Positions 16,946-55,217 of a DNA stretch of 64,000 nt are shown here, in pieces (position 1 is the first letter of the stretch; each line of letters starts with the position of its first letter). The notes under the pieces are model-generated. The model was given only the letters and a program-made list of their open reading frames with translations. It searched no databases and was not told the origin of the DNA. This DNA comes from Candidatus Omnitrophota bacterium (GTDB taxonomy: Bacteria; Omnitrophota; Omnitrophia; Omnitrophales; Aquincolibacteriaceae), in contig DAOPYQ010000005.1 of the NCBI GenBank assembly GCA_035352955.1, forward strand, positions 45,231 to 109,230. The letters run 5' to 3'. Made by a program: the position numbers and the translations under genes.

Positions 16946-16959
16946 CGTCTTTCCCCTTT

Positions 16960-24854: not shown

Positions 24855-25580
24855 TTATTTCGGATTGATAATATCTTCGGGCTTTAGCGAAACCGGCGGC
24901 CTCGATACAAGCACACCGTCCTGCAAATGATACGACCGTTCGTACTTCGCGGCCATTTCCTCATCGTGGGTTACGATCAAAAACGCCTGGCCTTCCTCTC
25001 GGTTCAATTCGTTGATCAACCCCATCACCGACGCAGCTGTTTCGGCATCCAGGTTCCCGGTCGGCTCATCACACAATACGACCGACGGATGGTTCACAAG
25101 CGCCCGGGCAATCGCCACCCGCTGTTGCTCCCCGCCCGAAAGTTCGGAAGGATAATGCGTGCGGCGGTTCCAGAGACGCACGCGCTTCAAGACATCTTTC
25201 GTCCAGTTCTTGTTCGGCTTCCCCGCGATCAGCGTCGGCAAAAGCACGTTCTCGTAAACCGTCAGCTCCGGAAGAAGATGATAGAACTGGAACACAAACC
25301 CGACATGGCGGTTGCGAACCCGCGCCAGTTCCCGCTCGGACATCTCGGTCATATCCTTACCGTCAAAAAGGATCTTCCCAAAATCCGGACGATCGAGTCC
25401 TCCCAAAAGGTGCAAAAGCGTGGATTTACCGCAACCGGATTTTCCGGTAATAAAAACCATTTCGCCTTTGCGGAGGATCACCTGAACCGACCGGAGAATT
25501 TCCAGTGTCCCGGCAGGGGTTTCATATTTTTTTCTGACATCAAACGCGCTGAGGAGCGGAACTTCTACAAGATTATTCAT
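24855..25580 (-). CDS. lolD: Lipoprotein-releasing system ATP-binding protein LolD
   Basis: GKSGCGKSTLLHLL, LSGGEQQRVAIARAL, VLCDEPTGNLD; paired with a LolC/E permease. Confidence 0.8.
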   Translation of the reverse strand: MNNLVEVPLLSAFDVRKKYETPAGTLEILRSVQVILRKGEMVFITGKSGCGKSTLLHLLGGLDRPDFGKILFDGKDMTEMSERELARVRNRHVGFVFQFYHLLPELTVYENVLLPTLIAGKPNKNWTKDVLKRVRLWNRRTHYPSELSGGEQQRVAIARALVNHPSVVLCDEPTGNLDAETAASVMGLINELNREEGQAFLIVTHDEEMAAKYERSYHLQDGVLVSRPPVSLKPEDIINPK

Positions 25581-26877: not shown

Positions 26878-26878
26878 A

Positions 26879-28303
26879 TCAAGCCTCCGTTCCTCTTTGT
26901 TCTTCCGGTTGTCCTTCCACATCTTCAGATTTTTTCTGAGGTTTCAGCTGAGGGAACAGGATCACATCGCGAATCGACGCCTGGTTCGTGAGAAGCATCA
27001 CAAGCCGGTCGATCCCGATCCCGAGACCGCCGGCGGGCGGCATCCCGTATTCCAACGCCATCAAAAAATCCTCATCGATCTCTTTGCTTTCGCCGATCAG
27101 TTCTTTTTGATCGTTCAACCGCTCGCGCTGGACCGCCGGATCGTTCAGTTCGGAAAAAGCATTCGCGATCTCCATCTTCGCCACAAAAAGTTCGAAGCGG
27201 TACACAAGCGCCGGGTCCTCGACCTTCGCCTTCGCGAGCGGCGTCATGACGGTCGGGTAATCGATCACAAACACCGGATCCCAGAAATCCTTCTCGACTT
27301 TCTCCCCAAAAATTTCGTTCAGGATATCGATATCTTCCATGTCTTTATCGACCTCGATATGGAATTTCTTGGCAGCCTCTCGGATATTCGCCGTCCTAAA
27401 ATCGATCCCGGTCGCTTCCTGAAGCGCCCCGTAAAAAGAAACACGCTTCCACGGCGTCTTAAAACTGAGCGTTCTATCACCGTACGGGACCTCGTCCTTG
27501 CCGTAGAGCATCATGACAAGTGAATGCACCATCGTCTCGGTGATCGCCATCATGTCATTGTAGTCCGCATAGGCCTGATAAAGCTCGAGCATCGTGAATT
27601 CCGGATTATGACGAACCGAAATGCCTTCGTTACGGAAATTGCGGTTGATTTCATAAACCTTCTCAAAACCGCCGACCAGAAGCCGCTTGAGATAAAGTTC
27701 CGGCGCCACGCGGAGATAGAGATCGGTGTGAAGCGTGTGGTGATGCGTCACGAAAGGCTTGGCACGGGCGCCGCCGGCCAGGGGCTGCATCATCGGCGTC
27801 TCAACTTCCATAAACCCTTGCTTGTCAAGGAACGCGCGGATCTCGCGGATAATCCGGCTCCGTGCTTTGAACGTCGCGCGAACTTCATCGTTTGAAATCA
27901 GATCCACATAACGGTGGCGGTAGCGGGTCTCAACGTCCTTAAGCCCATGCCACTTTTCCGGAAGCGTTCGAACAATCTTGGAAAGACGCTCGAACTTCTC
28001 GACTTTGATCGTAGGCTCGCCCGTCCGGGATTTGAAAAGTTCCCCTTCAACACCGAGGATATCCCCGAGAGAAAATTCTTTCTGAAAAAGCCTGTAATTC
28101 TCTTCGCCAAGGGTGTCCCTTTTAGCGTACATTTGCATACGCCCTCCCTCGTCCTTCAGATCCCCAAAGGTACTCTTCCCCATATCACGGCGGGTCATCA
28201 GACGGCCTGCCACTCTGACCTTCCGTCCCTCCTGAAAATTCGCGCGAAGATCCGCGATTGAATCGATGGGGAGAAACCTGTGTCCGTAATCAGATGAGCT
28301 CAT
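26879..28303 (-). CDS. lysS: Lysine--tRNA ligase (class II)
   Basis: OB-fold N-domain and class II motifs (FMEVETPMMQ, YEINRNFRNEG, GGLGIGIDRLVMLLT). Confidence 0.95.
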   Translation of the reverse strand: MSSSDYGHRFLPIDSIADLRANFQEGRKVRVAGRLMTRRDMGKSTFGDLKDEGGRMQMYAKRDTLGEENYRLFQKEFSLGDILGVEGELFKSRTGEPTIKVEKFERLSKIVRTLPEKWHGLKDVETRYRHRYVDLISNDEVRATFKARSRIIREIRAFLDKQGFMEVETPMMQPLAGGARAKPFVTHHHTLHTDLYLRVAPELYLKRLLVGGFEKVYEINRNFRNEGISVRHNPEFTMLELYQAYADYNDMMAITETMVHSLVMMLYGKDEVPYGDRTLSFKTPWKRVSFYGALQEATGIDFRTANIREAAKKFHIEVDKDMEDIDILNEIFGEKVEKDFWDPVFVIDYPTVMTPLAKAKVEDPALVYRFELFVAKMEIANAFSELNDPAVQRERLNDQKELIGESKEIDEDFLMALEYGMPPAGGLGIGIDRLVMLLTNQASIRDVILFPQLKPQKKSEDVEGQPEEQRGTEA

Positions 28304-29394: not shown

Positions 29395-29925
29395 CTACTT
29401 CAACTTCGGTATGAAAAACGGGGTTTCTTTTTTGTACTGGCGATAGGCATCGCCGAAACGCGCTTCAAGCTCTTTTTCTTCGATCAGTTTGATCTCCGCA
29501 ACCAGGAGCGCCAACAGAACAAGCGCCCCAAGACAGGCCCCGGCTTGGTTGAAACGAACCGCCCATCCCGCCAGATACAGAAAGAATCCGAGCATCATGG
29601 GATGCCGGCAATACCGGTACGGGCCGGATTGAAGAAATTTCTTCGTCGGAACGGCAGGCACCGGTGTTCCCTGGCCTTTCCATAACTGCCATACAACGGC
29701 CCAGACCAGCCACGGGACGCCAAGCACAAACAAAGCCATGCTGATAACATTTATCGCAGCATCTGAAAAAACCGCGCCCGGGAATAGCCCTCCGATGAAC
29801 CCCACCAAAAAAGGCCACCCCGCGAGAAACAGCGCAGCCCCAAGGATCGTCGCGACCGTGCGATATTTTGCCGAATATTCCTTACCCGCTCGCTCCACCA
29901 AGTAACGAACCAGTTTATCGAACAT
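29395..29925 (-). CDS. Isoprenylcysteine carboxyl methyltransferase (ICMT/PEMT)-family membrane methyltransferase
   Basis: 4-5 TM segments and the family motif SGPYRYCRHPMMLG. The ATG at 29925 has a GGAGGG RBS. Confidence 0.65.
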   Translation of the reverse strand: MFDKLVRYLVERAGKEYSAKYRTVATILGAALFLAGWPFLVGFIGGLFPGAVFSDAAINVISMALFVLGVPWLVWAVVWQLWKGQGTPVPAVPTKKFLQSGPYRYCRHPMMLGFFLYLAGWAVRFNQAGACLGALVLLALLVAEIKLIEEKELEARFGDAYRQYKKETPFFIPKLK

Positions 29926-29967
29926 GCTAGCCCTCCACGCCGACAACTCCTGCGGTTAGAATACAAA

Positions 29968-30588
29968 TTACGGCAATGCGTTCAGATACTCCCGTAGCTT
30001 GCGGCGGATCAAATTAAACTTACCCGTTTCGATCCAGTCCTTACGGAACACGCTGGAACCAACGGCAATGGCACTCGCCCCGCTCCTGAAATAATCTTGC
30101 ATGTTCTTTGGCGTCACACCGTTGCATGCCAGAAGCTCGATCTGCGAAAATGGACCTTTGATATCCTTGAAATAATCCGGCCCGAAACAGCTTGCGGGAA
30201 AAACTTTGACCATAGTGGCACCGGCCTTCCAGGCCTCATAAATATCCTGCGGCGCCAACGCTCCCGGAAAAACAGGGATCCGGTTCTTTTTGCAGTATTG
30301 GATGACGGGTTTGACCACAACAGGACTAACGATGAATGTCGCCCCGGCCTCCAGGGCAACTTTGAGGTCTTTCAGGTCCAGCACCGTGCCGGCACCGATC
30401 ATGAGCTTCTTTCCGTAACCTCGAACGGCTTTTTGAATCAGCTCCGGCGCATTCGTCGAGTTCATGGCGAACTCAACGGTCTCGAGACCACTCGCAACAA
30501 TGGCCTCGAGCAAAGGCTTCAGGGCACTGCTGGAAATGCCGCGCAGGATGCCGAGAACGGGTTTTATGCGGAACCTTGCAAGGTCCAT
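29968..30588 (-). CDS. eda: KDPG/KHG aldolase (2-dehydro-3-deoxyphosphogluconate / 4-hydroxy-2-oxoglutarate aldolase)
   Basis: VLGILRG...GAGTVLD...FIVSP...FPGALAPQDIYEAWKAGA...VKVFPA, an Eda-like TIM barrel. Confidence 0.8.
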   Translation of the reverse strand: MDLARFRIKPVLGILRGISSSALKPLLEAIVASGLETVEFAMNSTNAPELIQKAVRGYGKKLMIGAGTVLDLKDLKVALEAGATFIVSPVVVKPVIQYCKKNRIPVFPGALAPQDIYEAWKAGATMVKVFPASCFGPDYFKDIKGPFSQIELLACNGVTPKNMQDYFRSGASAIAVGSSVFRKDWIETGKFNLIRRKLREYLNALP

Positions 30589-31542
30589 TTATTCGGCCGT
30601 TTCGCTCCCAGCCAGACTGTCCCAGAACTCGCGATAATTCTCCTTTTTGTCACTGTTGCGCAGCTCCAAGGCCGAACGCGGATGCTCATCCAAAATGCCC
30701 GTGATCGCGTACGGGATCACATACCCCCATTCGATCTTTTCGCGCAAAGGAATGAACTCCTTCGAAATCAGGTCGAGGATCGGGCGAATGTCGTACTTGG
30801 GGTTCTTCAGAAATCCGAGCAAAAGCTCCGTCGGACAATTTCCCGCCGCGCGACCGAGGCCATAGACGGTGGAATCGAGATAATTCACGTTATGGATAAT
30901 CGCCTCGATCGTATTGCCGAAAGCAAGCTGCTGATTATTATGTGCGTGGATGCCAATCTCCTTGGTTTTGATAATGCTTTTCGCCTTCTTGACAAGGTAC
31001 TCGGTGGTCTCCTGATAAAGCGAGCCATTCGAGTCGACGAGATACACAACGTTACAGCGGCACTCCTTTTCAAGTTGGGCGAAACATTCGAGCAACTCCA
31101 CTTCGAGGATCTTGGAGATCGCCATCAGGTTCACCGTGGTCTCGTAACCCTTGTCGGCAAAATGATTGGCCATATAGATCGCTTTGTCGACGTCCTTGAC
31201 GTAACACGCCGTGCGGATCATGTCGACGGGACTTTCTTTTTTGGGTTTGATATCGTTCAGGTCGACGCGATCAACGTCTACCATCACAGACAGCTTGGTC
31301 TTCGTCTTGACGTCTCCGACAACCCTTCGGATGTCCTCATCATCGCAAAACTTCCAGACGCCGTACTTATCGCCTGGGAAAAGCCTGCGGGAATTCTTAT
31401 AGCCGATCTCCATATAATCGATCCCAGCGTCAGAGATCGCTTTAAAAACGGCGCGAACGAAGTTTTCGTCGAAATCGTGGTTGTTCATCAGCCCGCCATC
31501 GCGGATAGTGCAATCCAGTACTTTGATCTGCTCTCGAAACAT
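30589..31542 (-). CDS. DRE-TIM metallolyase family aldolase (HMGL-like / 4-hydroxy-2-oxovalerate aldolase-like)
   Basis: KVLDCTIRDGG motif and IGIHAHNNQQLAFGN. The ATG at 31542 is preceded by AAAGGAGA. The substrate is unknown. Confidence 0.6.
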   Translation of the reverse strand: MFREQIKVLDCTIRDGGLMNNHDFDENFVRAVFKAISDAGIDYMEIGYKNSRRLFPGDKYGVWKFCDDEDIRRVVGDVKTKTKLSVMVDVDRVDLNDIKPKKESPVDMIRTACYVKDVDKAIYMANHFADKGYETTVNLMAISKILEVELLECFAQLEKECRCNVVYLVDSNGSLYQETTEYLVKKAKSIIKTKEIGIHAHNNQQLAFGNTIEAIIHNVNYLDSTVYGLGRAAGNCPTELLLGFLKNPKYDIRPILDLISKEFIPLREKIEWGYVIPYAITGILDEHPRSALELRNSDKKENYREFWDSLAGSETAE

Positions 31543-31706
31543 GATTTCTCCTTTAGGATAAAGCCCTAATATATTCAGGGGGAAAAGCGCCAAGATTCTA
31601 GGGCAATCGGCCCGAAATTCAAAACTAAAAATATCCCCCCAAGACAACCGCACGGGCCACGCCCGCGATGGACTTGGGTACGAGCTTTTGTTATGATGCC
31701 CTCCCT

Positions 31707-32855
31707 ATGGAACTTCTTCTGACAGCGTTTCTTGTATGGATCCTTGGCGTTTGGATCTACCGGAGCATCCGCTCCCTTTCCGAACTGGCCCAAGCCCCCA
31801 TCCTCAGAATCTCCTCCACAAATGTTCGCCGCGGCAAAGTTTCGATCCTGATCCCGGCGAAAAATGAGGAGAAAAATATTGCAGATTGCGTACAACCCCT
31901 GCTTGCGCAATTGCACGCAGGCGACGAACTGCTCGTGATCAATAACTGCTCGGCGGACCGGACCGAAACGATCCTTAAAGAACTCGGCGCGGTCGAAATT
32001 TCCGCCGCAGGGACCCCGCCGCAACTCAAAACGGCGCCATCCTTCCGCTATCTTAATACGCCCCAAACCCCGAACGGATGGACCGGAAAGAATTTTGCGC
32101 TACATCTCGGTATCGACCATGCCTCATGCGATTGGATTCTATTCACCGATGCCGACACGCGCCACGCGCCGGGAAGCATCGATGCCTCCGTGGCGTTCGC
32201 AGAGAAAAACAAAGTCGATCTCTTGACCCTCCTTCCCCGAGCGCTGGCCCACGGTTTCTGGGAAAACCTGATTCAGCCCTGCGCGATGGGTTACATGGGT
32301 CTCTGGTTTCCCGTCGCAAAGATCAACGACCCCGCTTCCAAAGTTCATTTCGGGAATGGCCAGTACCTTCTCATCCGTAAAGAGCACTACCAAAAACTCG
32401 GCGGGCATGCCGCAGTCCGGGAAGCGTTCCTCGAGGATTTTGCACTGATGAAAAAAACGAAGGAGATGAACGCCCGCGGCATCTGCGCGTTCGGTATGGA
32501 GATCTACGGGACCCGGATGTACGATTCGTTCGGTGCCCTCTGGCGAGGCTGGCGGAGGATCTATCTTCACGCCTTTGAGCAAGCTCCCTGGCGAATCCTG
32601 AAATGTGTCCTGAGCGTCTTCTTCTTTTCGGTTCTGCCGCTCTTGCTTCTAGGAGCCGCACCGCACGGGATCGAAATCCTGCTCGGTCTTATCATTATGG
32701 CTATCATCCTGACAACCGCGATTAAAGCCGCCACGATCGTAAAAATAAGAAAACGTTACGCCCTGCTCCACCCTCTCGCCGCACTCGTCTTCCTTGGAAT
32801 CCTCGCCGACGCCCTCCACATGGCCCTTCTAAAACGGCCCACTCTTTGGCGATAA
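31707..32855 (+). CDS. Family-2 glycosyltransferase (CrtQ/HpnI/ApeJ-like membrane GT2)
   Basis: VSILIPAKNEE, LLVINNCSADRT, TDADT, and NGQYLLIRKEHY, plus C-terminal TM helices. The start could instead be the ATG at 31668. Confidence 0.7.
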   Translation: MELLLTAFLVWILGVWIYRSIRSLSELAQAPILRISSTNVRRGKVSILIPAKNEEKNIADCVQPLLAQLHAGDELLVINNCSADRTETILKELGAVEISAAGTPPQLKTAPSFRYLNTPQTPNGWTGKNFALHLGIDHASCDWILFTDADTRHAPGSIDASVAFAEKNKVDLLTLLPRALAHGFWENLIQPCAMGYMGLWFPVAKINDPASKVHFGNGQYLLIRKEHYQKLGGHAAVREAFLEDFALMKKTKEMNARGICAFGMEIYGTRMYDSFGALWRGWRRIYLHAFEQAPWRILKCVLSVFFFSVLPLLLLGAAPHGIEILLGLIIMAIILTTAIKAATIVKIRKRYALLHPLAALVFLGILADALHMALLKRPTLWR

Positions 32856-32922
32856 ATTTTGGCGCGAAGCCCTACGATTGAGCTCGAGGAAAAACAGCTT
32901 TTTTCTTCCTGATACGGACTGA

Positions 32923-34017
32923 CTAAAGGACGAGATAGCCGGCTTTCACGGCATAGTGAACGATCGTCTTGAGGAAATCGTAGTCGGTTTTTGGCATCGG
33001 AATACCCGTCCCTTTGAGAATCTCGCAGGTATTCGTTGTATCAAAGGTCAGATGACCGTTCAAGTATCCCAGATACGGCTCCATGATCGCAAATACCATC
33101 TGCTCCTGCGCGTTCATCTTGGATTTCTGGAAATCCTTCGGATGCATCACCTCGACCGGCGGCATATTGGGGTATTCCTCTCTCGCGAGCCTCAAAAGCG
33201 TTCCGATCGAAGGCGGATTCGGCGCGACAAGGTGGTAAGCCTTGTTGATACTCCGAGGATCTTTCACGATCGCCGCGGTGGCCCGAATGACAAAATCGAT
33301 CGGCACAATATTGAACGTATTCTCAAGATGGGTCGGCAGTTTTGAAAGCGCCCCGTGGGCAAAAAGTTTAAAGAACGGATAAATCACGTTAAAATCCGAA
33401 ACCACGCCCGTCTCCGAATGCCCCACCACAATGCTCGGCCGGATGATCGTCGTCGGAAGACCCTTCGCCATCGCCTCACGGACCTTGGTCTCCGCCTTGT
33501 ATTTGCTGGACTCGTAATAATTCGCGAATCCCGGTTTGGCGGGAAGCTCATCCTCTTTGGAACAATGGTTCCAAATGCTCCCTGCTACGAATGCCGTACT
33601 GAAATAGATAAACCTCTCGAGTTTTCCCTTTTTTCGCAAATCCCAAGCCAGCTCAAGCGCGTGCTCGGTTCCGCCCACATTGATCTGTTGACATTCCTTT
33701 TCCGTACCGTTCAGAGCCGTAAGCGCGGCGATATGGTAGAAAACCTTGCACTCCTGCTCCAGGAACTGGAGGTCGTCTTTTTTGATACCGAACTTATGGT
33801 TCGTAACGTCCCCCTCGATCACGCGAAGACGCGCGTTCAGATGGGAATCCAAGCCGATCCCAGTCAAAAGTTTTCTCACGCGTTCGTCGTGGGTCTTCCG
33901 GTTCTTCCCGCGAGCAAGAATCGCGATATCCGCCTTGGTGGTCTCCAAAAGCTCCTTGATGAGGTCCTGCCCGAGAACACCGGTCGCCCCGGTCATGAAA
34001 ATAAGTTCTTTAGCCAT
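32923..34017 (-). CDS. Stand-alone thioester-reductase-type SDR (fatty acyl-ACP/CoA reductase-like, 'male sterility' NAD-binding domain)
   Basis: FMTGATGVLG Rossmann motif and YESSKYKAE catalytic YxxxK. It is the last gene of the KS/ACP operon. Confidence 0.65.
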   Translation of the reverse strand: MAKELIFMTGATGVLGQDLIKELLETTKADIAILARGKNRKTHDERVRKLLTGIGLDSHLNARLRVIEGDVTNHKFGIKKDDLQFLEQECKVFYHIAALTALNGTEKECQQINVGGTEHALELAWDLRKKGKLERFIYFSTAFVAGSIWNHCSKEDELPAKPGFANYYESSKYKAETKVREAMAKGLPTTIIRPSIVVGHSETGVVSDFNVIYPFFKLFAHGALSKLPTHLENTFNIVPIDFVIRATAAIVKDPRSINKAYHLVAPNPPSIGTLLRLAREEYPNMPPVEVMHPKDFQKSKMNAQEQMVFAIMEPYLGYLNGHLTFDTTNTCEILKGTGIPMPKTDYDFLKTIVHYAVKAGYLVL

Positions 34018-35305
34018 GATGCTTCCTTAATGCCAGACAGATGTTCTGGCCGCCAAACCCGAAAGAGTTCGAAAGCGCCACGTTCACATCCGAACGCCGC
34101 GCGGTATTGGGAACATAGTCCAGATCACATTCCGGATCCGGTTCCTCATAATTGATCGTAGGCGGCAGCACCGAATCGCGCATCGCCAGAAGACAGAGGA
34201 TCGCCTCCACCCCGCCCGCGGCCGCGATCATGTGCCCGAGCATGGATTTTGTGGAACTCGCCGGGATCTTCGCCGCGTACTCGCCCATCGCTTTTTTGAT
34301 CGCACGCGTTTCGAGCGCATCATTCACCGCCGTCGACGTTCCGTGCGCATTAATATAATCGATATTTTCCGGTCCGACACCCGTTTTTTCCATCGCGATC
34401 TCGATGGCCCGCGCGGCACCTCGAACTTCCGGATCCATATCGGTCAAACGGTAAGCATCGGCGGTAGAACCGTATCCCGCGATTTCGCCGTAAATATGCG
34501 CTTTGCGCCTGCGCGCGTGTTCAAGCTCTTCCAGGATCAAAACCCCGGAACCTTCGGCGATTACAAACCCGTCACGTTTTTTATCGAAGGGACGCGAAGC
34601 TTTTTCGGGTTCGTCGTTGCGCCGGGACAGTGCCGTCAAAAGGCTGAACCCCGCAACACCCATCGGGTAAATCATCGAATGGGAACCGCCGGCCATGATT
34701 ACATCAGCATCCCCGCGGCGGATCCATTCAAACGCCTCCCCGATTGCCTGGGACGATGCCGCGCAAGCGGTTAAACAATTCGACACCGGCCCGCGGATAT
34801 CAAAAAGCCTCGTCAGATGCGTCACCGTCATGAACGGCTGGCTCTCAAGTTCCTTCAACGCGGTCATGTTCCGGCTCGCGTGATCGAGATAACGGCCCTT
34901 GTCCACAAGTTCCCCGGCACCGGAGTTGAACGAGGCGACGATCGTTTTTACGAAGGGATCGAAATCAATACCGCTGTCGCCAGCGCCGAAATAAATACCA
35001 AAGCGGCGAGAATCCACGGAGAACGGCCGGAGACCCGCATCCTTATAGGCCTCGGCTGCAGCCTGCAACGCAAAAAACGTACTCCGGGTCGCGCACGCAA
35101 GCGGAGGATTACGCTCCAACCATTTCTCGAACGGGAATCCTTTCACCTCACCCGCGATCCGGGTCGCAAACGTCGAAGCATCAAAAAGCGTGATGGGACC
35201 AACCCCGGACTTCCCCTGCGTGACGCGCAACCAAGTGTCCCGTACATTGTTGCCGAGCGGCGTTACGGCACCCATTCCTGTGACGACAATCTTTCGTTTA
35301 GACAT
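34010..35305 (-). CDS. Beta-ketoacyl-ACP synthase II-type ketosynthase (catalytic Cys-His-His intact)
   Basis: IVVTGMGAVTPLGN, active-site TACAASS, and NAHGTST / GHMIAAAG histidines. The ATG at 35305 is 8 nt from the CLF stop. Confidence 0.85.
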   Translation of the reverse strand: MSKRKIVVTGMGAVTPLGNNVRDTWLRVTQGKSGVGPITLFDASTFATRIAGEVKGFPFEKWLERNPPLACATRSTFFALQAAAEAYKDAGLRPFSVDSRRFGIYFGAGDSGIDFDPFVKTIVASFNSGAGELVDKGRYLDHASRNMTALKELESQPFMTVTHLTRLFDIRGPVSNCLTACAASSQAIGEAFEWIRRGDADVIMAGGSHSMIYPMGVAGFSLLTALSRRNDEPEKASRPFDKKRDGFVIAEGSGVLILEELEHARRRKAHIYGEIAGYGSTADAYRLTDMDPEVRGAARAIEIAMEKTGVGPENIDYINAHGTSTAVNDALETRAIKKAMGEYAAKIPASSTKSMLGHMIAAAGGVEAILCLLAMRDSVLPPTINYEEPDPECDLDYVPNTARRSDVNVALSNSFGFGGQNICLALRKHHG

Positions 35306-36584
35306 GTTTGAACACCAGGGATGCGTTCTGTCCGCCAAAACCGAACGTGTTGAGAACGACAGAATTGACCTGACAGGACTCCGCTTTTCCGCGCACGAAA
35401 GGCAACGAGCACAAAGGATCCTGTTTTTCAAGATTTGCAACGGGCGGAACGATCTGCTGTTTCGCGATCAGAGCCGCGATCACCGCCTCCACGCCTCCCG
35501 AACCATAAAGAAGGTTTCCCGTCACCGGTTTTACGGCGGTCACGCGCAACTTTCCGAAATCTTTGGGGTAGAGAGAATGAATGGCCAACGCCTCCTGAAC
35601 ATCCTCCTGCGGGATACCGCTCCCGTTCGCGACAAGAACGTCTACATCCTCCGGATCGAGCGCCGCGTCTTCGAGCGCACGCCGAAGCGCGACACGCTTG
35701 CCCGTAAAATCGTCGGAATCCCGCGGATCGTAATTATGATCTGAGGCAGAACCGTACCCGCTGATCTCGGCATAAATGTTCACGCCGCGCTTCTTGGCAT
35801 GCTCGTAAGATTCAAGAACGAGGATACCCGCGCCTTCGCCGATCACGATCCCATCGTGGTTTTCGTCGAACGGGCAGTAAACCTTTTCCGGAGCCGCGGT
35901 TCGTTTTGAAAGAAACCCGAGCAAATGAAGGCGCGAGATCCCCATCGCATTAACCTTCGAGTCGGTGCCGCCGGCGAGCATGATGTCCGCGTCCCCGCGT
36001 TCGATCACGCGGTAGGACTCCCCGATCGCCTGCGTGCTGGCCGCCGTCGAGGTCGTGATGGTGTTGCTGGGACCCCGGAGCTGGTTCAGAATAGAAACAT
36101 GGCAAGCCGGCATGTTCGGCAGGTATTTGAGGAACCAAAGCGGAAAAAGCGCGCGGATACCGTCCTGACCGAACTTTGTCATGGAAAAATGCCCGTTCGC
36201 GTCGACGCCGTTTTGGAACCCGACCCCCATTTCGTCGAGGTCGTTGTTGATAATGCCGGTGCCGAGCGTGACCCCGATGCGCGTCGGGTCACATTCCGCG
36301 GCAGAAAGTTTTGCGTCCCGGAGCGCGAGACGGCTCGCCGCAACCGCAAACGAAATCTCCCGTGACATCAGTTTGAGGGACTTTCGGTTCTCGACGTAAT
36401 CTTTCGGTTCAAATTCCGTGACACGTCCCACACCGTTCAGCGGAAACCCTCCAAGGTTCAACGCTTCGGCACTGCGAACGGCGGAGCGCGCGTGTACCGC
36501 GGCATCCCAGTAAGACTCCCAACCGTTGCCGCAGGGCGTGATCACGCCAAACCCCGTCACAACAACGCGCCGTCGCGTGCTCAT
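35298..36584 (-). CDS. Ketosynthase-like chain-length-factor partner (KS-beta); catalytic Cys to Thr and both His to Asn
   Basis: KS fold (VVVTGFGVITPCGN), but the active site is TSTAAST instead of TACAASS, and ANGSG / TGNLLYG replace NAHGT / LGHMI. Confidence 0.8.
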   Translation of the reverse strand: MSTRRRVVVTGFGVITPCGNGWESYWDAAVHARSAVRSAEALNLGGFPLNGVGRVTEFEPKDYVENRKSLKLMSREISFAVAASRLALRDAKLSAAECDPTRIGVTLGTGIINNDLDEMGVGFQNGVDANGHFSMTKFGQDGIRALFPLWFLKYLPNMPACHVSILNQLRGPSNTITTSTAASTQAIGESYRVIERGDADIMLAGGTDSKVNAMGISRLHLLGFLSKRTAAPEKVYCPFDENHDGIVIGEGAGILVLESYEHAKKRGVNIYAEISGYGSASDHNYDPRDSDDFTGKRVALRRALEDAALDPEDVDVLVANGSGIPQEDVQEALAIHSLYPKDFGKLRVTAVKPVTGNLLYGSGGVEAVIAALIAKQQIVPPVANLEKQDPLCSLPFVRGKAESCQVNSVVLNTFGFGGQNASLVFKHV

Positions 36585-37075
36585 TGTGAGAGACCGCTTT
36601 GGAATGAGTTTTCGTTCGCCCCCTGCGGTCCACTCTGCGTGACAGGCTGGCTGATCTTCGCGCGAACATTGAAATGTTTCATAAAAGCATCATGGAACGT
36701 GATCGATTTTGTTTGATCCGGCGAAAGGCCCGCCACCGCCATCAGAAGAAGTTTCGCCTTAGCAACCACTTCCCCCGCGGAAGTAATCGTCGCCTCAAGC
36801 CATCCGCCGTCGGTCCCGAGAGCTTCGGACCACGCCTCGATCCGGATCGGCGTTCCCGGAACGGGAACACCCGCGATTGTCGCGCTCTCGATCTTGGCAA
36901 AAATCAGATCTTTCCGGTAATCGCTTTCAGCACCGACGAGAAGCCCGCCGGTCTGCGCCATCATTTCGATAAAAAGAACTTCGCTGGAATACGGGGCTTG
37001 GGGAACTTTGGAGGTTGTGACGGCCCTCCGGCCTTTCAGAATGGAATCGACTTTGTCGAGAAGAAGCCAGCGCAT
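36581..37075 (-). CDS. Hotdog-fold 3-hydroxyacyl-ACP dehydratase (ApeI/FabA-Z-like)
   Basis: Size, operon position and ATGA coupling to neighbours. The sequence is weakly FabZ-like. Confidence 0.55.
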   Translation of the reverse strand: MRWLLLDKVDSILKGRRAVTTSKVPQAPYSSEVLFIEMMAQTGGLLVGAESDYRKDLIFAKIESATIAGVPVPGTPIRIEAWSEALGTDGGWLEATITSAGEVVAKAKLLLMAVAGLSPDQTKSITFHDAFMKHFNVRAKISQPVTQSGPQGANENSFQSGLSQ

Positions 37076-37076
37076 G

Positions 37077-37463
37077 TTATGTCCAGATCATCGCCTGGGC
37101 GCCCACAAGATCGCCGGAACGAAAAAAATGCCCCTCGCCCCGATACACGGTCTTCTGGTTCCGGGTGGATCGCCACTCCATTTCAAAATGATCGCCTGAC
37201 CGGCGCTTGATCCGCATACCCTGGAACCCTTCGAGCCCCATCCATGCCTCGCCGCAAGCTTTAAAAAATGCTTCCTTGGCAGTAAAAAGTTCGGCGAAAT
37301 CCCGGAGGGACAACCGCCGGAACGCGCGGCGTTCGGAGACATTCAGAAAACGCTCGCGGACATACTCTTTGTGGCGAGAAAGAAATTGTTTGACCCGGGA
37401 GCAAGAAACGAGGTCGACGCCGATGCCCCGCAGCGAGGCCGGCTTATTTTTTACGAGCAGCAT
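37077..37463 (-). CDS. acpS: Holo-ACP synthase (4'-phosphopantetheinyl transferase, AcpS family)
   Basis: GIGVDLV...FTAKEAFFKA motifs; 128 aa. Confidence 0.75.
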   Translation of the reverse strand: MLLVKNKPASLRGIGVDLVSCSRVKQFLSRHKEYVRERFLNVSERRAFRRLSLRDFAELFTAKEAFFKACGEAWMGLEGFQGMRIKRRSGDHFEMEWRSTRNQKTVYRGEGHFFRSGDLVGAQAMIWT

Positions 37464-37861
37464 TTATCCGAACAAGAACTCTTTTTATCCAAACGGTCGT
37501 TGAGATAGCGGAGGATCATCTTCACCGTAAAGTAGTCCGCCAACTTCGTGATCTGGGGATCCTTGGTGAACTCGTCGAGTTCGAGGTACGGAAGTTTGGC
37601 ACGGAGCTCCGCGAGACCTTCCGGCGTGACCATGCCCTCTTTCACGAACCGTTCATCATTCAGAAGATGACTCGGAAAAAGGTCCCCGGCGGGGATCTTG
37701 AGATCGAAGGTCTTTTCCAGGCGGAAAATCACATCGATGAAATCGATCGACTCGGCACCAAGGTCGCGCTTCAGGGAAGCTTCCGGGGTGATATCGCTTT
37801 CCTCCACACCGAGGGCGGAAGCAAGGGTCTGCTGAACTTTCGAAAAAATTTCTTTTTCCAT
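37451..37861 (-). CDS. Acyl carrier protein, long form (136 aa) with a Cys-rich C-terminal tail
   Basis: Phosphopantetheine attachment motif LKRDLGAESIDFIDV, and a C-terminus ...DKKSSCSDKCCS. Confidence 0.75.
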   Translation of the reverse strand: MEKEIFSKVQQTLASALGVEESDITPEASLKRDLGAESIDFIDVIFRLEKTFDLKIPAGDLFPSHLLNDERFVKEGMVTPEGLAELRAKLPYLELDEFTKDPQITKLADYFTVKMILRYLNDRLDKKSSCSDKCCS

Positions 37862-37892
37862 GATGACTTTAATCTCCTTTTTCCTACTATCG

Positions 37893-38306
37893 CTATGACG
37901 CTGCTATTGATGTCTGAGGATTCTTTACTTTCGCCACGGTCAGCTTGGCGGACACGGCCACTTCGCCATGATAATACAATTTCGCGTCCCAGGTCGTTTC
38001 GTCCTCCCCCGTCCCGAGAAGCGTCAAACGGCTCTCCCATTCGTCGCCGGGTCGGAGGTACTTGGTGAACCTTGTCGCGCGGATCTGTTTCAAAAAATAA
38101 TGACTTCCGGTATTGTTTTTGACCGACTCAAGATACCGTTCCGCGGTCTGCTTGAGCATTTCAAGTGCAAGAACTCCGGGCAGAACCGGAAAATCCGGAA
38201 AATGATCCTTAAAGAACTCCGAATCCTCGGGGATACGGCCGCACGCCGCGATCCCTTCCCCTTCTCTTACCCAAAGTACCCGTTCGATCGAAAGCACCGA
38301 TATCAC
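37893..38306 (-). CDS. FabZ-like 3-hydroxyacyl-ACP dehydratase
   Basis: HFPDFPVLPGVL, the FabZ active-site motif. GTG start. Confidence 0.75.
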   Translation of the reverse strand: MISVLSIERVLWVREGEGIAACGRIPEDSEFFKDHFPDFPVLPGVLALEMLKQTAERYLESVKNNTGSHYFLKQIRATRFTKYLRPGDEWESRLTLLGTGEDETTWDAKLYYHGEVAVSAKLTVAKVKNPQTSIAAS

Positions 38307-38326
38307 CTTTTCTCTATGCGACTCCT

Positions 38327-38947
38327 TTAGCGGACTTTAAGAACATACAATCCGTTCAGAATCCGGAAACCGGCAAGCCAAGTATAAAAAGGACTGAATG
38401 TCACGGCCTCAAGTTCCTGCCGCTCGAAAAACCCCAACCACTCTTCATGTTTACGGAACTGATGGGGATGGTCGAGCCATTCCAGATTCAACATCCGGTC
38501 GCGAAAGATCGTCCAGAACCGGCCAAGCTTATGATGATATAAATCCTCCACGACGATCACTTTGTCCCGCGTCACTCTTCGAACCTCCCGAAAAAGAGCC
38601 TCGGGGTCCGGCACATGGTGCAACATCGTCACCAGCAACGTCACGTCAAAACTTTTATCCGGGAACGGGATCCGGCCACCGTCATAGATCACCACGGGCG
38701 CCTGCTGATATCCCGGCTTTACCACGTCGACAACGAGATGCTCATGCCCCCGCTTCTTCATCGGCGCCGCGTAAAACCCCCAGCCACCACCAAGATCCAG
38801 AATCCGGCTCTTCGGAGGAATCTGTTTTTCAAAAAGCTGCGCAATTCCTTCGGCTCTCTTCTCGAGAGAGCCGCAAAAACAATGCCTCACAAGCCCGTCC
38901 AGCACACGGCGGAGAAAGGCCTGCAGATCTTTTTTGATAGAAGTCAC
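38327..38947 (-). CDS. Class I SAM-dependent methyltransferase
   Basis: ILDLGGGWGFYA glycine-rich SAM motif. GTG start. It is the first gene of the minus-strand lipid operon. Confidence 0.7.
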   Translation of the reverse strand: MTSIKKDLQAFLRRVLDGLVRHCFCGSLEKRAEGIAQLFEKQIPPKSRILDLGGGWGFYAAPMKKRGHEHLVVDVVKPGYQQAPVVIYDGGRIPFPDKSFDVTLLVTMLHHVPDPEALFREVRRVTRDKVIVVEDLYHHKLGRFWTIFRDRMLNLEWLDHPHQFRKHEEWLGFFERQELEAVTFSPFYTWLAGFRILNGLYVLKVR

Positions 38948-39153
38948 GATAAGAATAGAGACGGCATTAATATTTTGAGCGTGGAATTATAGCACAGCCC
39001 TTCTTCATGCCCCAAGAAATCTTTTTAGCATCGCATGCAAAATATCACCTGCCGTTTTTTTTCTTGCCCCGCACACCGCGACCACGTTTCTCTAGTCCTT
39101 GGAAAGTGAATTGAATATTGATTTTTCGAGAGAATGCGGCTATCGTATCGCCC

Positions 39154-39912
39154 ATGACATCACCTCTTAAAGGCAAAGTTGCTCTTATCACAGGTGCGTC
39201 CCGCGGAATCGGCAAGGCTACCGCCCTCCGTCTTGCGGACGACGGCGTCGCCATCGCGGTCAATTATCTCCAAAACGAGGACGCCGCAAAGAAAACGGTG
39301 GAGGAGCTCCAAGCCAAGGGCGTCAAAGCTGCGGCCTTCCAATGCAACGTCGGAGATCTCGACGCACACAACGAACTGATCGAGGGCGTGGTGAAAACGC
39401 TCGGCACGATCGACATCCTGGTCCACAACGCGGCGCTCGGCGCTTTCAAACCCGTCCACCGCCTCAAGATGAACCAGTGGGACCTCTCGATGAACATCAA
39501 CGCCAAGGCCTTCCTCGCGCTGACCCAGAAGGTCCTCCCCATCATGGAACCCAAAAAGGAAGGCTCGATCATCGCGATCTCGAGCCTTGGTTCGCACCGG
39601 TTCATCCCCAATTACGGTGCGATCGGGATTTCAAAAGCCGCGATGGAATCGGTGATCCGTTACCTCGGGGTCGAGCTGATGCAAAAAGGCATCCGCGTAA
39701 ACGGCGTTTCCGGCGGGTTGGTTGACACGGACGCGCTCAAGGCGTTCCCTTTTTTCGATGCGTTCAAAAATGAAGTGCTGAAGCGAACTCCGGCAGGGCG
39801 CATCGGAAAGCCGGAAGATCTTGCCCGCGTTGTCGCATTCCTCTGCTCGCCCGAATCTTCGTGGATCGTCGGTCAGGTCCTCATCGCCGACGGCGGCCTT
39901 TCGCTCATCTGA
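39154..39912 (+). CDS. 3-oxoacyl-ACP reductase-type SDR (FabG/ApeQ-like ketoreductase)
   Basis: KGKVALITGASRGIGKA and a catalytic YGAIGISKAA (YxxxK). It is divergent from the KS operon. Confidence 0.8.
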   Translation: MTSPLKGKVALITGASRGIGKATALRLADDGVAIAVNYLQNEDAAKKTVEELQAKGVKAAAFQCNVGDLDAHNELIEGVVKTLGTIDILVHNAALGAFKPVHRLKMNQWDLSMNINAKAFLALTQKVLPIMEPKKEGSIIAISSLGSHRFIPNYGAIGISKAAMESVIRYLGVELMQKGIRVNGVSGGLVDTDALKAFPFFDAFKNEVLKRTPAGRIGKPEDLARVVAFLCSPESSWIVGQVLIADGGLSLI

Positions 39913-39930
39913 TCGTTTAAAAATCCCCTG

Positions 39931-40749
39931 TCAAAATCCGTAAGCCGTTGCCGCCATCTGTTCCGCACTCATCTTGTAGACGTCACTGAACGCCCGGCTA
40001 AAAGATTCTCCCGTTTTCATCCTTGCCAGGAGATCCCGGACCGTCCCGAATCCGTATTGATCCACGATATATTTAACGACCGCGTACCCGTGCTCATACA
40101 ACCCCGGAGGATAACTCCCATCTTTGTTCAGTGTCGTTCGCAGTTTAAAAAAATCCTTCGGGGGCAACCGGGCCAACGCCGGTTGCTTCTGGTAAACGTC
40201 CTTCGCGACATCCGGAGTCCGGTTGCGGATGCCAAGATCTTCATACTCCGCCAACCCTTCATTCATCCATCGCGGCAGATCCACACTCCCAAGCGACGCG
40301 ACGGCCAGGTGAGAAAGCTCGTGAATAAAAGTACTCTTGAAAGGATTGGGATCCACAGGCGGTCCCTTGACGCCGCGAAAAAGGATGCGGATCCTTTTAT
40401 CCTGATAAAATCCGCTGCTGATACGGTCCGGCTCATCCACCTTCCGGTAGTTCTCCGGTGAAAGCAGGATCACCTCATAAGCCCCGGACGGCTGGAAATC
40501 AAAATCATCCTTGACGGATCTCAATGATTCTTCGATCTGAAGAACAACCGTTTCTTTTTCGGCGGGAGTAAGCGGACCGTCATACAGGACCTTGAAGTTC
40601 TGGACGGTAAAGCTCTCAAACTGTTCTTTGGTCTTTTTTTCGTACGATAGGCGTTGATACGTTCCCTTGTCAAAACGGATGGCCTGCGCTGAGACAGGAT
40701 TCAAAACGATCGATACGGTCAAAAACAGCAGGGCGACTCCCGTTCTCAT
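39931..40749 (-). CDS. Secreted zinc metallopeptidase, Peptidase_MA-like (HExxH...NEGLAEY)
   Basis: Signal peptide MRTGVALLFLTVSIVLNPVSAQA, then HELSHL followed by WMNEGLAEYED. Confidence 0.6.
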   Translation of the reverse strand: MRTGVALLFLTVSIVLNPVSAQAIRFDKGTYQRLSYEKKTKEQFESFTVQNFKVLYDGPLTPAEKETVVLQIEESLRSVKDDFDFQPSGAYEVILLSPENYRKVDEPDRISSGFYQDKRIRILFRGVKGPPVDPNPFKSTFIHELSHLAVASLGSVDLPRWMNEGLAEYEDLGIRNRTPDVAKDVYQKQPALARLPPKDFFKLRTTLNKDGSYPPGLYEHGYAVVKYIVDQYGFGTVRDLLARMKTGESFSRAFSDVYKMSAEQMAATAYGF

Positions 40750-41404: not shown

Positions 41405-41614
41405 CTAGAACGTAACCTTACCCGGGACAGTAGCTCCGGGAACATACTCGGCCGTATCAAATCCTACTTTTTTTGCTGTTGTTTCGCCGTCCGGACCCGT
41501 GTGCCAATATCCCGCGCCGGCACCAACGCGGACGCAACCCGCGAAACCCAACACGCCAAGCGCAACGATCAATATGACGCCGAAGCATCGACTCCGATCA
41601 GACCTGTTATTCAT
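41405..41614 (-). CDS. Small lipoprotein (69 aa), hypothetical
   Basis: Signal peptide with lipobox LGFAGC. Its start overlaps the lnt stop by 8 nt, which suggests translational coupling. Confidence 0.45.
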   Translation of the reverse strand: MNNRSDRSRCFGVILIVALGVLGFAGCVRVGAGAGYWHTGPDGETTAKKVGFDTAEYVPGATVPGKVTF

Positions 41615-43148
41615 TTGCCAACTTCCGGCGGAGAAAAACCGCGAGAATCAAAAAAAGAGCTGCGGCAACGTACGGAAAAAGGAATCCGCCCCGTCTGTAA
41701 AAAGTAGTTTCTGTTGCGAGCGGCAGGTCCAAAGTCTCATGCCCCAGTTCAAAGATCTCGCCGCCCTTCTCACCGCGAACGGTCGCAAGCAATTCCCCGC
41801 GGCGGGAAATAAACCCGGAAACCCCGGTATTCCCGGCCCGCACAACCGCCACACCGTTTTCGACGGCCCGGAAGACCGAGGCCTGAAAATGCTGGAACGG
41901 AGAACCCGTTTTCCCGAACCATGCATCGTTCGTGATCACGGTCAGGAATTTCGCTCCGCGATCCGCGTATTCGCGAGAAAGATCGGTAAAAACATCCTCA
42001 AAACAGATCAGCACGCCGAACGGCCAATCCTCGCGCGCCCACCGGAAAAGCACCGGCACGGTCCCTGCGCTGAAATCGCTGATCCCGAGAGACTCCGCGA
42101 TCGGTGTCAGCCAGAAAAAAATCGGCTTCAGCGGGATAAATTCCCCGAACGGTACAAGGCGGAGCTTGTCGTAACGGCCAAGACCCACGCCGTTCTTATC
42201 GAGGAGATACGCGCTATTGTAAACCTCCTTCTCCGTCACCCAGTAGAGCGCCCCGATCAAAAGAGGCGTCTGAACTTCCTTGGCAAGCTGCGTGATCCTC
42301 GCCGCGGCAACATCCCCGTTGAAATACCCCGGGAACGCGGCTTCTGGCCAAATGATAAGGTCGGGCTGTTTTACCGCCGCCAACTGCGTCAACTTAATGT
42401 AGATTTCGAGGATCTTCTCCTTCGCCATCAGCTCCCATTTGACCGACTGGGGAATGTTCCCCTGAAGTACCGAAACGCGGAGATATTCCTCCGGCTTTTC
42501 CTCCCGGCCAAGCCGCCGGTCCCCGTAGACCATGAGCCCGATCAAAATCCCAACGCTTACGGCAAAGAGCGCCGCCGGAACCCCCCGCTTGCGCAATTTT
42601 TTCGGAGCAAAAAGTTCGAACACGCACACGTTCACGATTGCGATCAGAAAGCCGAGACCGTACGCCCCCCAAATACTTGCGGACTGGATCATCACCGGGT
42701 ACGGGGCCTGGGAATACCCCAAAAGATTCCATTCCATCCCAAAAATCGGGACTTCCGAACGGAGGATCTCAATGACGGTCCACGCAAGCGCAACCCAAAG
42801 AACCCGGAACCAGAGCGGCGCCTGGGCTTTGCGGACCGCATACGCGAGGCAAGTAAAACCCGTGAGATAAACCGTCTGCATCAACGTCCATAGGATCCAC
42901 CCGGCGGGCGCCACATGCGTCAACCAATGCATCGAAAGACCGAAGAAGACGAGACCAAAAACAACACCGGCTCGTGCGGCTTGAGCCAGTGTCTCCGCTT
43001 TGCGGATGGCAAAAAACAGCGGGACAAGCGCGACCCAAGCAAGAAAACCCCAGGCGGGATGAGGATAGCTTAAGGTGAGAAGAATACCGGAAGAGGCGGC
43101 CAGGAAGGCCCGCGAGCGGAGTCCCAAAGAGAAGGCTCTTTTATTCAT
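41607..43148 (-). CDS. lnt: Apolipoprotein N-acyltransferase
   Basis: 8 TM N-domain plus a CN-hydrolase domain with the catalytic triad conserved (IIWPEAA, YDKLRLVPFGEFIP, VLICFEDVF). Confidence 0.9.
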   Translation of the reverse strand: MNKRAFSLGLRSRAFLAASSGILLTLSYPHPAWGFLAWVALVPLFFAIRKAETLAQAARAGVVFGLVFFGLSMHWLTHVAPAGWILWTLMQTVYLTGFTCLAYAVRKAQAPLWFRVLWVALAWTVIEILRSEVPIFGMEWNLLGYSQAPYPVMIQSASIWGAYGLGFLIAIVNVCVFELFAPKKLRKRGVPAALFAVSVGILIGLMVYGDRRLGREEKPEEYLRVSVLQGNIPQSVKWELMAKEKILEIYIKLTQLAAVKQPDLIIWPEAAFPGYFNGDVAAARITQLAKEVQTPLLIGALYWVTEKEVYNSAYLLDKNGVGLGRYDKLRLVPFGEFIPLKPIFFWLTPIAESLGISDFSAGTVPVLFRWAREDWPFGVLICFEDVFTDLSREYADRGAKFLTVITNDAWFGKTGSPFQHFQASVFRAVENGVAVVRAGNTGVSGFISRRGELLATVRGEKGGEIFELGHETLDLPLATETTFYRRGGFLFPYVAAALFLILAVFLRRKLANE

Positions 43149-54404: not shown

Positions 54405-54440
54405 GATTATTCTCCGTGATGGTCAGTGGATCCAACGATC

Positions 54441-55214: not shown

Positions 55215-55217
55215 GCG

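Follow-up and report, generated by a model that had tools for sequence, protein, structure and literature searches.

Within a 64,000-nucleotide stretch of DNA from a Candidatus Omnitrophota bacterium (hereafter the window, meaning the whole of the stretch analysed), a block of ten genes at positions 31668-39912 encodes proteins related to type II fatty acid synthesis (FAS II), grouped around an insert-bearing acyl carrier protein (ACP) that is designated ACP* here. Sequence comparisons indicate that this block is the Omnitrophota branch of a large cluster family, so far uncharacterised, which is present in Planctomycetota and Omnitrophota. On balance, we lean towards the prediction that it constitutes a dedicated pathway, in which a type II line would assemble a fatty-acyl chain on ACP* and off-load it reductively. 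An earlier note on this DNA, made from the sequence alone, had not been able to assign the block to any characterised pathway, and profile, structure and literature searches have led to the same outcome: there is no NCBIfam equivalog for the cluster-specific members, and no description was found in literature searches on Omnitrophota lipid synthesis, on clusters combining a ketosynthase (KS) and chain-length factor (CLF) with a thioester reductase (TR) and a glycosyltransferase, or on the Planctomycete cluster.

The ACP*-centred family is defined here by an insert-bearing ACP gene flanked by two genes for FabA/FabZ-like hotdog proteins, followed by the gene of a FabF-family KS, to which that of a degenerate partner may be added, and by that of a chain-release enzyme, and the Omnitrophota block displays this arrangement. 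Database searches with ACP* retrieved sequences from Planctomycetota, including the cultured Rubinisphaera brasiliensis and Maioricimonas, and a scan with an ACP* alignment found more than 572 relatives in metagenome contigs. The Planctomycete layout consists of a FabA-like dehydratase (DH1), FabG, ACP*, a second dehydratase (DH2), an optional degenerate KS, the KS and a membrane-anchored alpha/beta-hydrolase with matches to BAAT-type thioesterases. In R. brasiliensis the six-gene form, DH1-FabG-ACP*-DH2-KS-alpha/beta-hydrolase, is found; its ACP* is 54% identical to that of the window and carries the same insert, and its KS is 57% identical.

The Planctomycete clusters are true homologues of the Omnitrophota block, sharing the gene order around the ACP gene and a release enzyme after the KS. 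However, they contain FabG, two intact dehydratases and a hydrolase for release, sometimes followed by a GH3 ligase or a DUF1571 protein, whereas the Omnitrophota version has a TR, and this reductase stands exactly at the position of the hydrolase. Compared with the Planctomycete form, the Omnitrophota block has lost FabG and gained an AcpS and a methyltransferase (MT), and its DH2 and partner KS have degenerated, probably to become structural subunits. Locus L085 is intermediate between the two forms, since AcpS, FabG and the hydrolase are all present there, the partner KS shows Cys/His/Tyr at the catalytic positions, and Tyr replaces the catalytic His of DH2.

At several Planctomycete-type loci a gene for a GH3 acid-amine ligase or a DUF1571 protein comes after the hydrolase. 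The GH3 ligase (L122 14800-16593; also in L060 and L090) matches OlsH, the lyso-ornithine lipid synthetase, weakly (105 bits against a cutoff of 620). The ligase implies that a released acid is the product at those Planctomycete loci, and it suggests that this acid then becomes joined to an amine. A third variant of the cluster has been seen in L067, L071, L076 and L105 (GC content of about 0.62), with the order DH1-ACP*-DH2-partner KS-KS, Glu at the Cys position of the partner, a seryl-tRNA synthetase-like gene directly after the KS, and no FabG or release enzyme nearby.

For the genome under study, about 85 kb of sequence was read, including the window and 10 kb past either end, and the block was analysed by listing open reading frames (ORFs), by Pfam and NCBIfam scans, by searches of solved structures, and through AlphaFold2 (AF2) models compared by Foldseek. 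The ten ORFs, with the domains expected of them, are collected in Table 1, and they agree with the genes called independently for three public contigs. A 21 kb stretch identical to this one occurs on Ga0116247_10000081, a JGI contig of 178 kb, and on two contigs of metagenome-assembled genomes (MAGs) at NCBI, and the dead KS protein shows 100% identity to NCBI and JGI entries labelled Candidatus Omnitrophota. The block lies where the earlier note had placed it and follows the gene order given there, including the convergent GT2 gene and an ACP with its own AcpS inside the block, but instead of nine minus-strand genes there are eight, translationally coupled, and two flanking genes on the plus strand. 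The overlaps that had been noted between neighbouring genes were also seen, these being 4 nt between the degenerate second hotdog protein (HD2) and the dead KS, with ATGA read in the sequence, and 8 nt both between the dead KS and the KS and between the KS and the TR; to these a 13-nt overlap between the ACP and AcpS genes has to be added. As had been predicted, genes for loading and export are missing from the window and from the 10 kb past either end, and no fab gene was found in those outer 10 kb. The block had been described as self-contained. Nevertheless, it lacks a ketoreductase (KR) and a malonyl transferase, and both activities must come from elsewhere. A promoter and terminator scan of positions 31400-40200 was uninformative, with counts at the level of chance, and an Rfam search of the 28-42 kb region gave no match.

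Table 1. Genes of the ACP*-centred block, in the order of transcription of the operon, followed by the two flanking genes (positions refer to the window).
Product	Position	Strand	Remarks
Class I S-adenosylmethionine (SAM)-dependent methyltransferase (MT)	38327-38947	minus	First operon gene; Pfam Methyltransf_11/23/25
FabZ/FabA-like 3-hydroxyacyl-ACP dehydratase (DH1)	37893-38306	minus	PF07977
Insert-bearing acyl carrier protein (ACP*)	37451-37861	minus	PP-binding at residues 8-62 only
AcpS-type 4'-phosphopantetheinyl transferase	37077-37463	minus	PF01648, 52.8 bits
Degenerate second hotdog protein (HD2)	36581-37075	minus	Weak FabZ matches
Catalytically dead FabF-like ketosynthase (partner KS)	35298-36584	minus	Both ketoacyl-synthase domains
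Active FabF-family ketosynthase (KS)	34010-35305	minus	Intact Cys/His/His
Stand-alone thioester reductase (TR), extended short-chain dehydrogenase/reductase (SDR), NAD_binding_4	32923-34017	minus	PF07993, TIGR01746
Membrane-embedded GT2 glycosyltransferase, lipid-acceptor type	31668-32855	plus	Convergent with the operon; Glycos_transf_2, Glyco_transf_21
FabL-type NADPH enoyl-ACP reductase (SDR)	39154-39912	plus	Divergent from the operon; NF005975

The carrier protein is the member that best sets the family apart. ACP* comprises 136 residues, of which the NCBIfam ACP models match residues 2-60 only, and it remains below every ACP cutoff (46.9 against 70.45). Between helices II/III and helix IV there is an insert of about 45 residues, strongly conserved and kept across the Omnitrophota and Planctomycetota ACP* sequences. 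In an AF2 model built from 30 homologues (pLDDT of 88.5) the insert forms ordered extra helices, and a fold search with this model returned no solved ACP that covers it, the query-based TM-score (TMq) being at most 0.53. This insert is the hallmark of the cluster family. The AcpS gene comes after the ACP gene throughout Omnitrophota, and also in L085, the intermediate locus, and its product is also below the equivalog cutoff (35.3 against 59.8). Thus ACP, FabZ and AcpS all fall short of canonical FAS II at the equivalog level, the FabZ-like protein DH1 scoring 65.8 and 58.1 bits with models whose cutoffs are 113 and 155.

In DH1 the catalytic His motif is retained, as is the acidic residue, and the motif DHFPDFPVLPG...LEM is conserved in its orthologues, although its best solved FabZ relative reaches only 43.5 bits. 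Its candidate kinship with the amxFabZ of anammox bacteria was rejected, DH1 being no closer to the amxFabZ structures than to FabZ from Escherichia coli. In HD2, which has no Pfam match, a deletion of 12 residues has removed the catalytic His motif, whereas the helix bearing Glu (IEMMAQ) is kept. In the alignment the motif forms a series, being intact in the Planctomycete DH2, changed from His to Tyr in L085 and deleted in Omnitrophota. The two hotdog dehydratases of the earlier note are therefore two hotdog proteins, the second of them without the catalytic His motif, and HD2 is likely to be a non-catalytic partner of DH1.

The active KS conserves the Cys/His/His triad. It lies just below the cutoff of the FabF equivalog TIGR03150 (483.9 bits against 493.75), passes the PRK07314 subfamily (475 against 387), and has housekeeping FabF enzymes as its best solved relatives. 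In the partner KS the triad is replaced by Thr/Asn/Asn; among 118 relatives of this protein, the Cys position is occupied by Ser, Ala or Thr in 116 and the first His is changed to Asn in 114, while Lys is kept. The best solved relatives of the partner are likewise FabF proteins and not CLFs, and for both proteins NCBIfam and the PDB rank FabF first, the solved structures of FabF enzymes coming ahead of the KS/CLF pairs of ishigamide and actinorhodin. A relationship with the CLF of aromatic type II polyketide synthases (PKSs) was considered and rejected, as the Cys position holds Thr, Ser or Ala and never Gln, and the actinorhodin KS-beta (1tqy_B) scores 148 bits against 280 for FabF.

In a neighbour-joining tree with only three outgroup sequences, all the active KS proteins of ACP* clusters form one clade, adjoining E. 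coli FabF, and all the partner KS proteins, from Omnitrophota and Planctomycetota, form a second, separate one. The residue at the Cys position of the partner is Ser, Thr, Ala or Phe in Omnitrophota and Asp or Glu in the Planctomycete-type loci, the latter being exactly the substitution reported for RB3714 and RB4527 of Rhodopirellula baltica, in which Asp or Glu replaces the active-site Cys (Rattray et al.). An active KS accompanied by a catalytically dead protein is thus what the earlier note had described, but the kinship it saw with ApeO/ApeC or with the KS/CLF of PKSs does not hold, both proteins being relatives of FabF. That note had also stated that a pair grouping with FabF would speak for a known system. 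BLAST, NCBIfam and solved structures do essentially group the pair with FabF, but such a grouping is not enough to turn the block into a known system. The partner KS is probably a structural subunit.

The divergent gene next to the operon had been taken for a FabG-like KR, and its reassignment changes the expected product. The SDR that it encodes obtains 296.8 bits with the FabL model NF005975, under the cutoff of 328, compared with 182 bits for FabG. Its best solved relative is FabL from Bacillus subtilis (3oic; 225 bits, aligned from end to end), the next match reaching 156 bits, and its translation presents the motif Tyr-x6-Lys (NYGAIGISK) instead of the Tyr-x3-Lys of KRs. It is, then, a FabL-type enoyl-ACP reductase (ENR), which adjoins the cluster at most Omnitrophota loci and is not adjacent at six. 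The reassignment leaves the cluster without any KR, and it disfavours the probably polyunsaturated chain proposed in the earlier note.

The assignment of the TR, by contrast, needs no change, and its stand-alone nature supports the reductive release that had been predicted. It matches PF07993 with 186 bits (cutoff of 20) and TIGR01746 with 163 bits over positions 2-371 of the 371 of the model, below the cutoff of 213. The Rossmann motif GATGVLG (GxxGxxG) and the catalytic Y-x3-K were read in its sequence, and its best solved relative is the terminal reductase of MxaA (4u7w), an enzyme that performs a four-electron reduction.

The same arrangement recurs in related genomes, a comparison that the earlier note had proposed. 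A scan of the genome collection with the TR as query returned 35 loci, of which 34, labelled as Omnitrophota or as "uncultured bacterium", have the same gene order. The remaining one, L035, was the only locus of another kind; there a TR homologue follows a type I PKS, and it was rejected as an example from outside Omnitrophota because it is not an ACP* cluster. With six metagenome loci that also carry the Omnitrophota order, about 40 Omnitrophota loci are available in all, and the ten-gene arrangement, that is, a divergent FabL, the series MT-DH1-ACP-AcpS-HD2-dead KS-KS-TR and a convergent GT2, is kept down to about 47-57% identity in the TR (tblastn). Such an arrangement is far beyond chance.

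As regards the two tailoring candidates, the information is less specific. The MT gives weak NCBIfam matches only (DVU_1556 family, MftM and BioC), and a database search returned 194 relatives, among which all those that bear a source organism name come from Omnitrophota. Its AF2 model (pLDDT of 93) resembles generic small-molecule methyltransferases in Foldseek, with phospholipid N-methyltransferases, sugar O-methyltransferases, UbiG and BioC all scoring at similar levels. A BioC-like methylation of the primer was rejected as unsupported, and so was a kinship with the anammox methyltransferase, which is not a preferred match. In NCBIfam, the GT2 comes closest to HpnB (141 bits) and to CruG, a glycosyltransferase of carotenoids (122 bits), without reaching the cutoff of either model. 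The GT2 gene is adjacent at most Omnitrophota loci, including distant ones, and missing in L026 and L021. In L026 (5057-13190) the MT is absent as well, while the seven-gene core and a FabL that is still adjacent are kept; this joint absence, although a single case, hints that MT and GT2 act together. Downstream of the TR in L026, after an ORF of 91 residues, there is a pyruvate kinase gene. In L021 (11168-16718), three co-directional genes for B12-binding radical-SAM proteins and a GT2 of the polyprenyl-phosphate type take the place of the usual GT2, directly after the TR; these radical-SAM proteins are best matched by HpnJ-like models (207-353 bits, below cutoff), and the arrangement may represent a different tailoring route.

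Taking these assignments together, a route can be proposed in which AcpS would first convert ACP* to its holo form, as the coupling of their genes suggests. Malonyl loading and beta-keto reduction would be carried out in trans by FabD and FabG encoded elsewhere, as the cluster encodes neither of them and FabG forms part of the cluster itself in the Planctomycete relatives. The acyl-ACP* would then be elongated by the KS, whose catalytic residues are intact, and its dead partner; the formation of a heterodimer by these two proteins, and any control of chain length by the partner, would be analogous to what is found in KS/CLF pairs and in FabF1XL/FabF2XL, described below. DH1, paired with the His-less HD2, would dehydrate the intermediate, and FabL, an enoyl reductase by class, would be used to saturate the resulting enoyl group, leading to a mostly saturated chain and not to a polyene. 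From its family and position, the TR would detach the chain from ACP* in the form of a fatty aldehyde, which could possibly be further reduced to the alcohol. Finally, in the least secure step of the route, GT2 and MT would probably tailor the lipid, for instance to yield an alkyl glycoside whose head group is methylated.

A pathway of this kind, separate from general fatty acid synthesis, is suggested by the divergence of ACP*, DH1 and AcpS, by the presence of two pseudo-enzyme subunits, by the release enzyme seen in every variant and by the fact that at 123 related loci (1.31 Mb) the cluster never adjoins fabH, fabD, plsX or a canonical ACP gene. Moreover, branches of fatty acid synthesis specific to one ACP have their precedents in amxFabZ/amxACP and in the AcpXL cluster (PMC10139942, PMC11901934). 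The latter, acpXL-fabZXL-fabF2XL-fabF1XL-adhA2XL-lpxXL of Rhizobiales, has a dedicated ACP, a FabZ and two adjacent FabF paralogues, and borrows KR, enoyl reductase and malonyl transferase (MCAT) from the housekeeping system (PMC11901934). It resembles the Omnitrophota block as an auxiliary type II module with a dedicated ACP, a FabZ and two FabF-type proteins. However, its product is transferred to lipid A by LpxXL, whereas the block has neither an acyltransferase nor a zinc-dependent alcohol dehydrogenase but a TR; furthermore, the block differs in the 45-residue insert of its ACP and in the degeneration of one KS and of one dehydratase. Neither PRK09116 nor PRK06519, which we take to be models of XL-type ketosynthases, reaches its cutoff in the NCBIfam scan (298 bits against 470 and 84 against 320, respectively). 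A second parallel is offered by heterocyst glycolipid synthesis and by MxaA-type domains, in which a chain bound to an ACP is set free as an aldehyde or alcohol by a TR belonging to the same family, the alcohol of the heterocyst pathway being subsequently glycosylated. Nevertheless, those systems are type I PKSs or nonribosomal peptide synthetases with a fused reductase, while here the TR stands alone behind a type II system, and glycosylation in the block is suggested by adjacency only.

Several observations weigh against a dedicated pathway. The KS score borders on the FabF threshold, and its Rubinisphaera orthologue passes the equivalog; the order fabG-acp-fabF mirrors that of the canonical operon; GT2 and FabL are encoded on the opposite strand; the MT points to no specific class in sequence or fold searches; and all members of the family are known from sequence alone. 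Adjacency itself is weak evidence of function because housekeeping neighbours, such as LysS and Lnt, are also syntenic. From these facts an alternative arises, which we regard as rather unlikely, according to which the block is the main, and possibly the only, elongation module of fatty acid synthesis in the cell. ACP* would be a housekeeping carrier, KS, AcpS and FabL would be sole copies, and TR, MT and GT2 would form a side branch to lipids derived from the aldehyde or alcohol, such as precursors of ether lipids or glycolipids.

In agreement with such a role, the cluster contains AcpS, which is usually present in a single copy, and a FabL-type ENR, the only ENR seen; it is also universally conserved and set among core genes. 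No second fab locus was found in any sequence examined, that is, the roughly 85 kb of this genome and 123 related loci totalling 1.31 Mb. When these related loci were searched with the E. coli proteins PlsX, FabH, FabD, FabG, AcpP and FabF, only the own members of the clusters and the acyltransferase (AT) domain of a PKS were matched, there being no FabH, FabD, PlsX or canonical ACP, and FabG only in the Planctomycete versions. In the KEGG Orthology (KO) lists of Seymour et al. for three Omnitrophota entities, which record presence or absence, the entries listed include FabD, FabG, FabZ, FabF, ACP, AcpS, PlsX and LpxA; FabI, FabK and FabL are not among them, and FabH figures in one of the three, so that the FabL, KS, ACP* and AcpS of the cluster could be the only copies of the cell.

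On the other hand, those tables are limited to presence or absence, and the absence of a second locus refers to about 85 kb of this genome. ACP*, DH1 and AcpS all fail the equivalog cutoffs, HD2 and the partner KS are pseudo-enzymes, the gene of the release enzyme is translationally coupled to that of the KS, and the Planctomycete relatives carry a thioesterase-like hydrolase. In addition, Rhodopirellula baltica has five FabB/F paralogues, and anammox planctomycetes possess canonical ACP and FabF beside the special ones. It has to be noted that elongation on ACP* and reduction by the TR are common to a dedicated pathway and to a housekeeping one.

The earlier note had related the block to the aryl polyene (APE) and flexirubin clusters, in which a KS/CLF pair and two dehydratases would give rise to a conjugated polyene, methylated, glycosylated and anchored in the membrane as a pigment. 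The parts list is indeed alike, since the APE cluster of E. coli CFT073 (ApeA-R), used here as the reference, also combines a KS and a non-catalytic partner, two hotdog proteins, an ACP, an MT and a GT2; precomputed Pfam entries list DH1 as ApeI-like, and the Planctomycete relatives have a KR and no enoyl reductase inside the cluster. However, this resemblance does not extend to specific homology. In a direct BLAST of all the block proteins against the CFT073 cluster, none matched an APE protein better than the housekeeping fatty acid synthesis proteins of E. coli, and the KS and the dead KS were nearer to FabF, with 40% and 34% identity, the values for ApeR or ApeO being 33% and 29%. For its part, the dead KS, a full-length FabF-like protein, had no match to ApeC, a CLF of 240 residues. 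GT2 and MT had none to ApeJ or ApeB, and the hotdog proteins gave none to ApeI or ApeP at E <0.01, a result with which the ApeI-like Pfam entry of DH1 contrasts. PRK07103 (polyketide KS) and PRK09185 (beta-ketoacyl-ACP synthase), presumably APE-type KS models, remained far below their cutoffs (228 bits against 445 and 221 against 407). Neither the window nor the 10 kb past either end contains genes for an aryl-acid ligase, a thioesterase, a lysophospholipid acyltransferase (LPLAT), LolA or MMPL, and beside the operon there is an enoyl reductase instead of a KR. Thus a pigment of this type appears to be largely refuted on homology, and we consider it very improbable.

Genome-mining software tends to label Omnitrophota loci of this kind as ladderane clusters, and for MAGs of Omnitrophota there is a report of clusters labelled "ladderane" by antiSMASH, together with their expression (PMC9902471). 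The anammox FAS-like cluster in question does resemble the block in belonging to the same superphylum, in its orthogonal ACP/FabZ pair, amxFabZ dehydrating on amxACP only and not on the canonical ACP (PMC10139942), and in having an active KS with a dead FabF paralogue, FabF2 (PMC2649909). It differs from the block in its ACP type and in its radical-SAM and phytoene-desaturase genes, while the block has TR, MT and GT2. No gene for a B12 radical-SAM or phytoene-desaturase-like protein was found in the block or its flanks, and because these defining genes are absent the label would be misleading here. A ladderane-type product is thus scarcely credible, in spite of the three B12 radical-SAM genes that follow the TR in L021, as these are HpnJ-like and far below the cutoff of rSAM_ladder_B12 (86-129 bits against 360), DH1 has no special proximity to amxFabZ, and ladderanes are known only from anammox bacteria.

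Some neighbouring genes also deserve mention. Between the GT2 and a small membrane methyltransferase of the PEMT/ICMT/DUF1295 type (29395-29946, minus strand, 1.7 kb from the GT2) there is a pair of genes for an HMGL-like protein and a KDPG/KHG aldolase, Eda (29968-31545, minus strand). Among the related loci this pair occupies the same position in L015 and L044 only, and the PEMT-type methyltransferase is not kept beside the cluster at other loci. On the opposite side, two tandem paralogues of the apolipoprotein N-acyltransferase Lnt (41607-43148 and 43153-44730, minus strand) lie directly downstream of SecA, and many Omnitrophota loci keep one Lnt or more in synteny with the lipid cluster. 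The window also contains two separate sets of lipid-transport genes of the MlaE/MlaF/MlaD type (about 15363-17772 and 53634-56348), one of them with a STAS-domain MlaE, as well as a LolCDE-like pair formed by MacB_PCD/FtsX and ABC proteins at about 24855-26922. The presence of these two Mla-type sets and of the LolCDE-like pair clearly indicates that the organism maintains outer-membrane lipid trafficking. Just outside the window, some 2.4 kb after position 64000, there is a gene of giant size, called at 10,302 residues and without Pfam match (L127 15556-21788, on Ga0116247_10000081); very long proteins are a known trait of Omnitrophota.

In sum, the block is familiar in kind, being an auxiliary FAS II-like cluster with a dedicated ACP and a KS with a dead partner. 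Its novelty lies in the insert carried by the ACP, in a reductase that stands alone on a type II line, in its paired pseudo-enzymes and in its distribution over Omnitrophota and Planctomycetota. Omnitrophota are widespread and uncultured, to our knowledge nothing is known about their lipids, and the genome surveys of the phylum that were searched barely mention fatty acid or lipid synthesis. In this context, a block that is conserved across the sampled Omnitrophota lineages predicts a concrete class of product, namely chains built on ACP* and released reductively.

The ACP* with its structured 45-residue insert also defines hundreds of related clusters in Planctomycetota, and the family accounts for the long-noted Planctomycete FabF paralogues whose active-site Cys is changed to Asp or Glu. 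Because cultivable Planctomycetota strains carry such clusters, the family is experimentally accessible. For genome mining, caution is advisable with the automatic labels "ladderane" or "aryl polyene" at loci of this type.

As a tentative proposal, ACP* may mark an ancient and previously unrecognised second acyl line common to Planctomycetota and Omnitrophota, which would have been rewired in the latter through the exchange of the hydrolase for a reductase, the appearance of pseudo-enzymes and the acquisition of its own AcpS. Its product would be a lipid derived from a fatty alcohol or aldehyde and characteristic of the phylum, such as an alkyl glycoside or an ether-lipid precursor, and the line might even be the sole fatty acid synthesis of these bacteria. 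If this is true, the lipid would offer itself as a candidate biomarker of a phylum that is uncultured and globally distributed.

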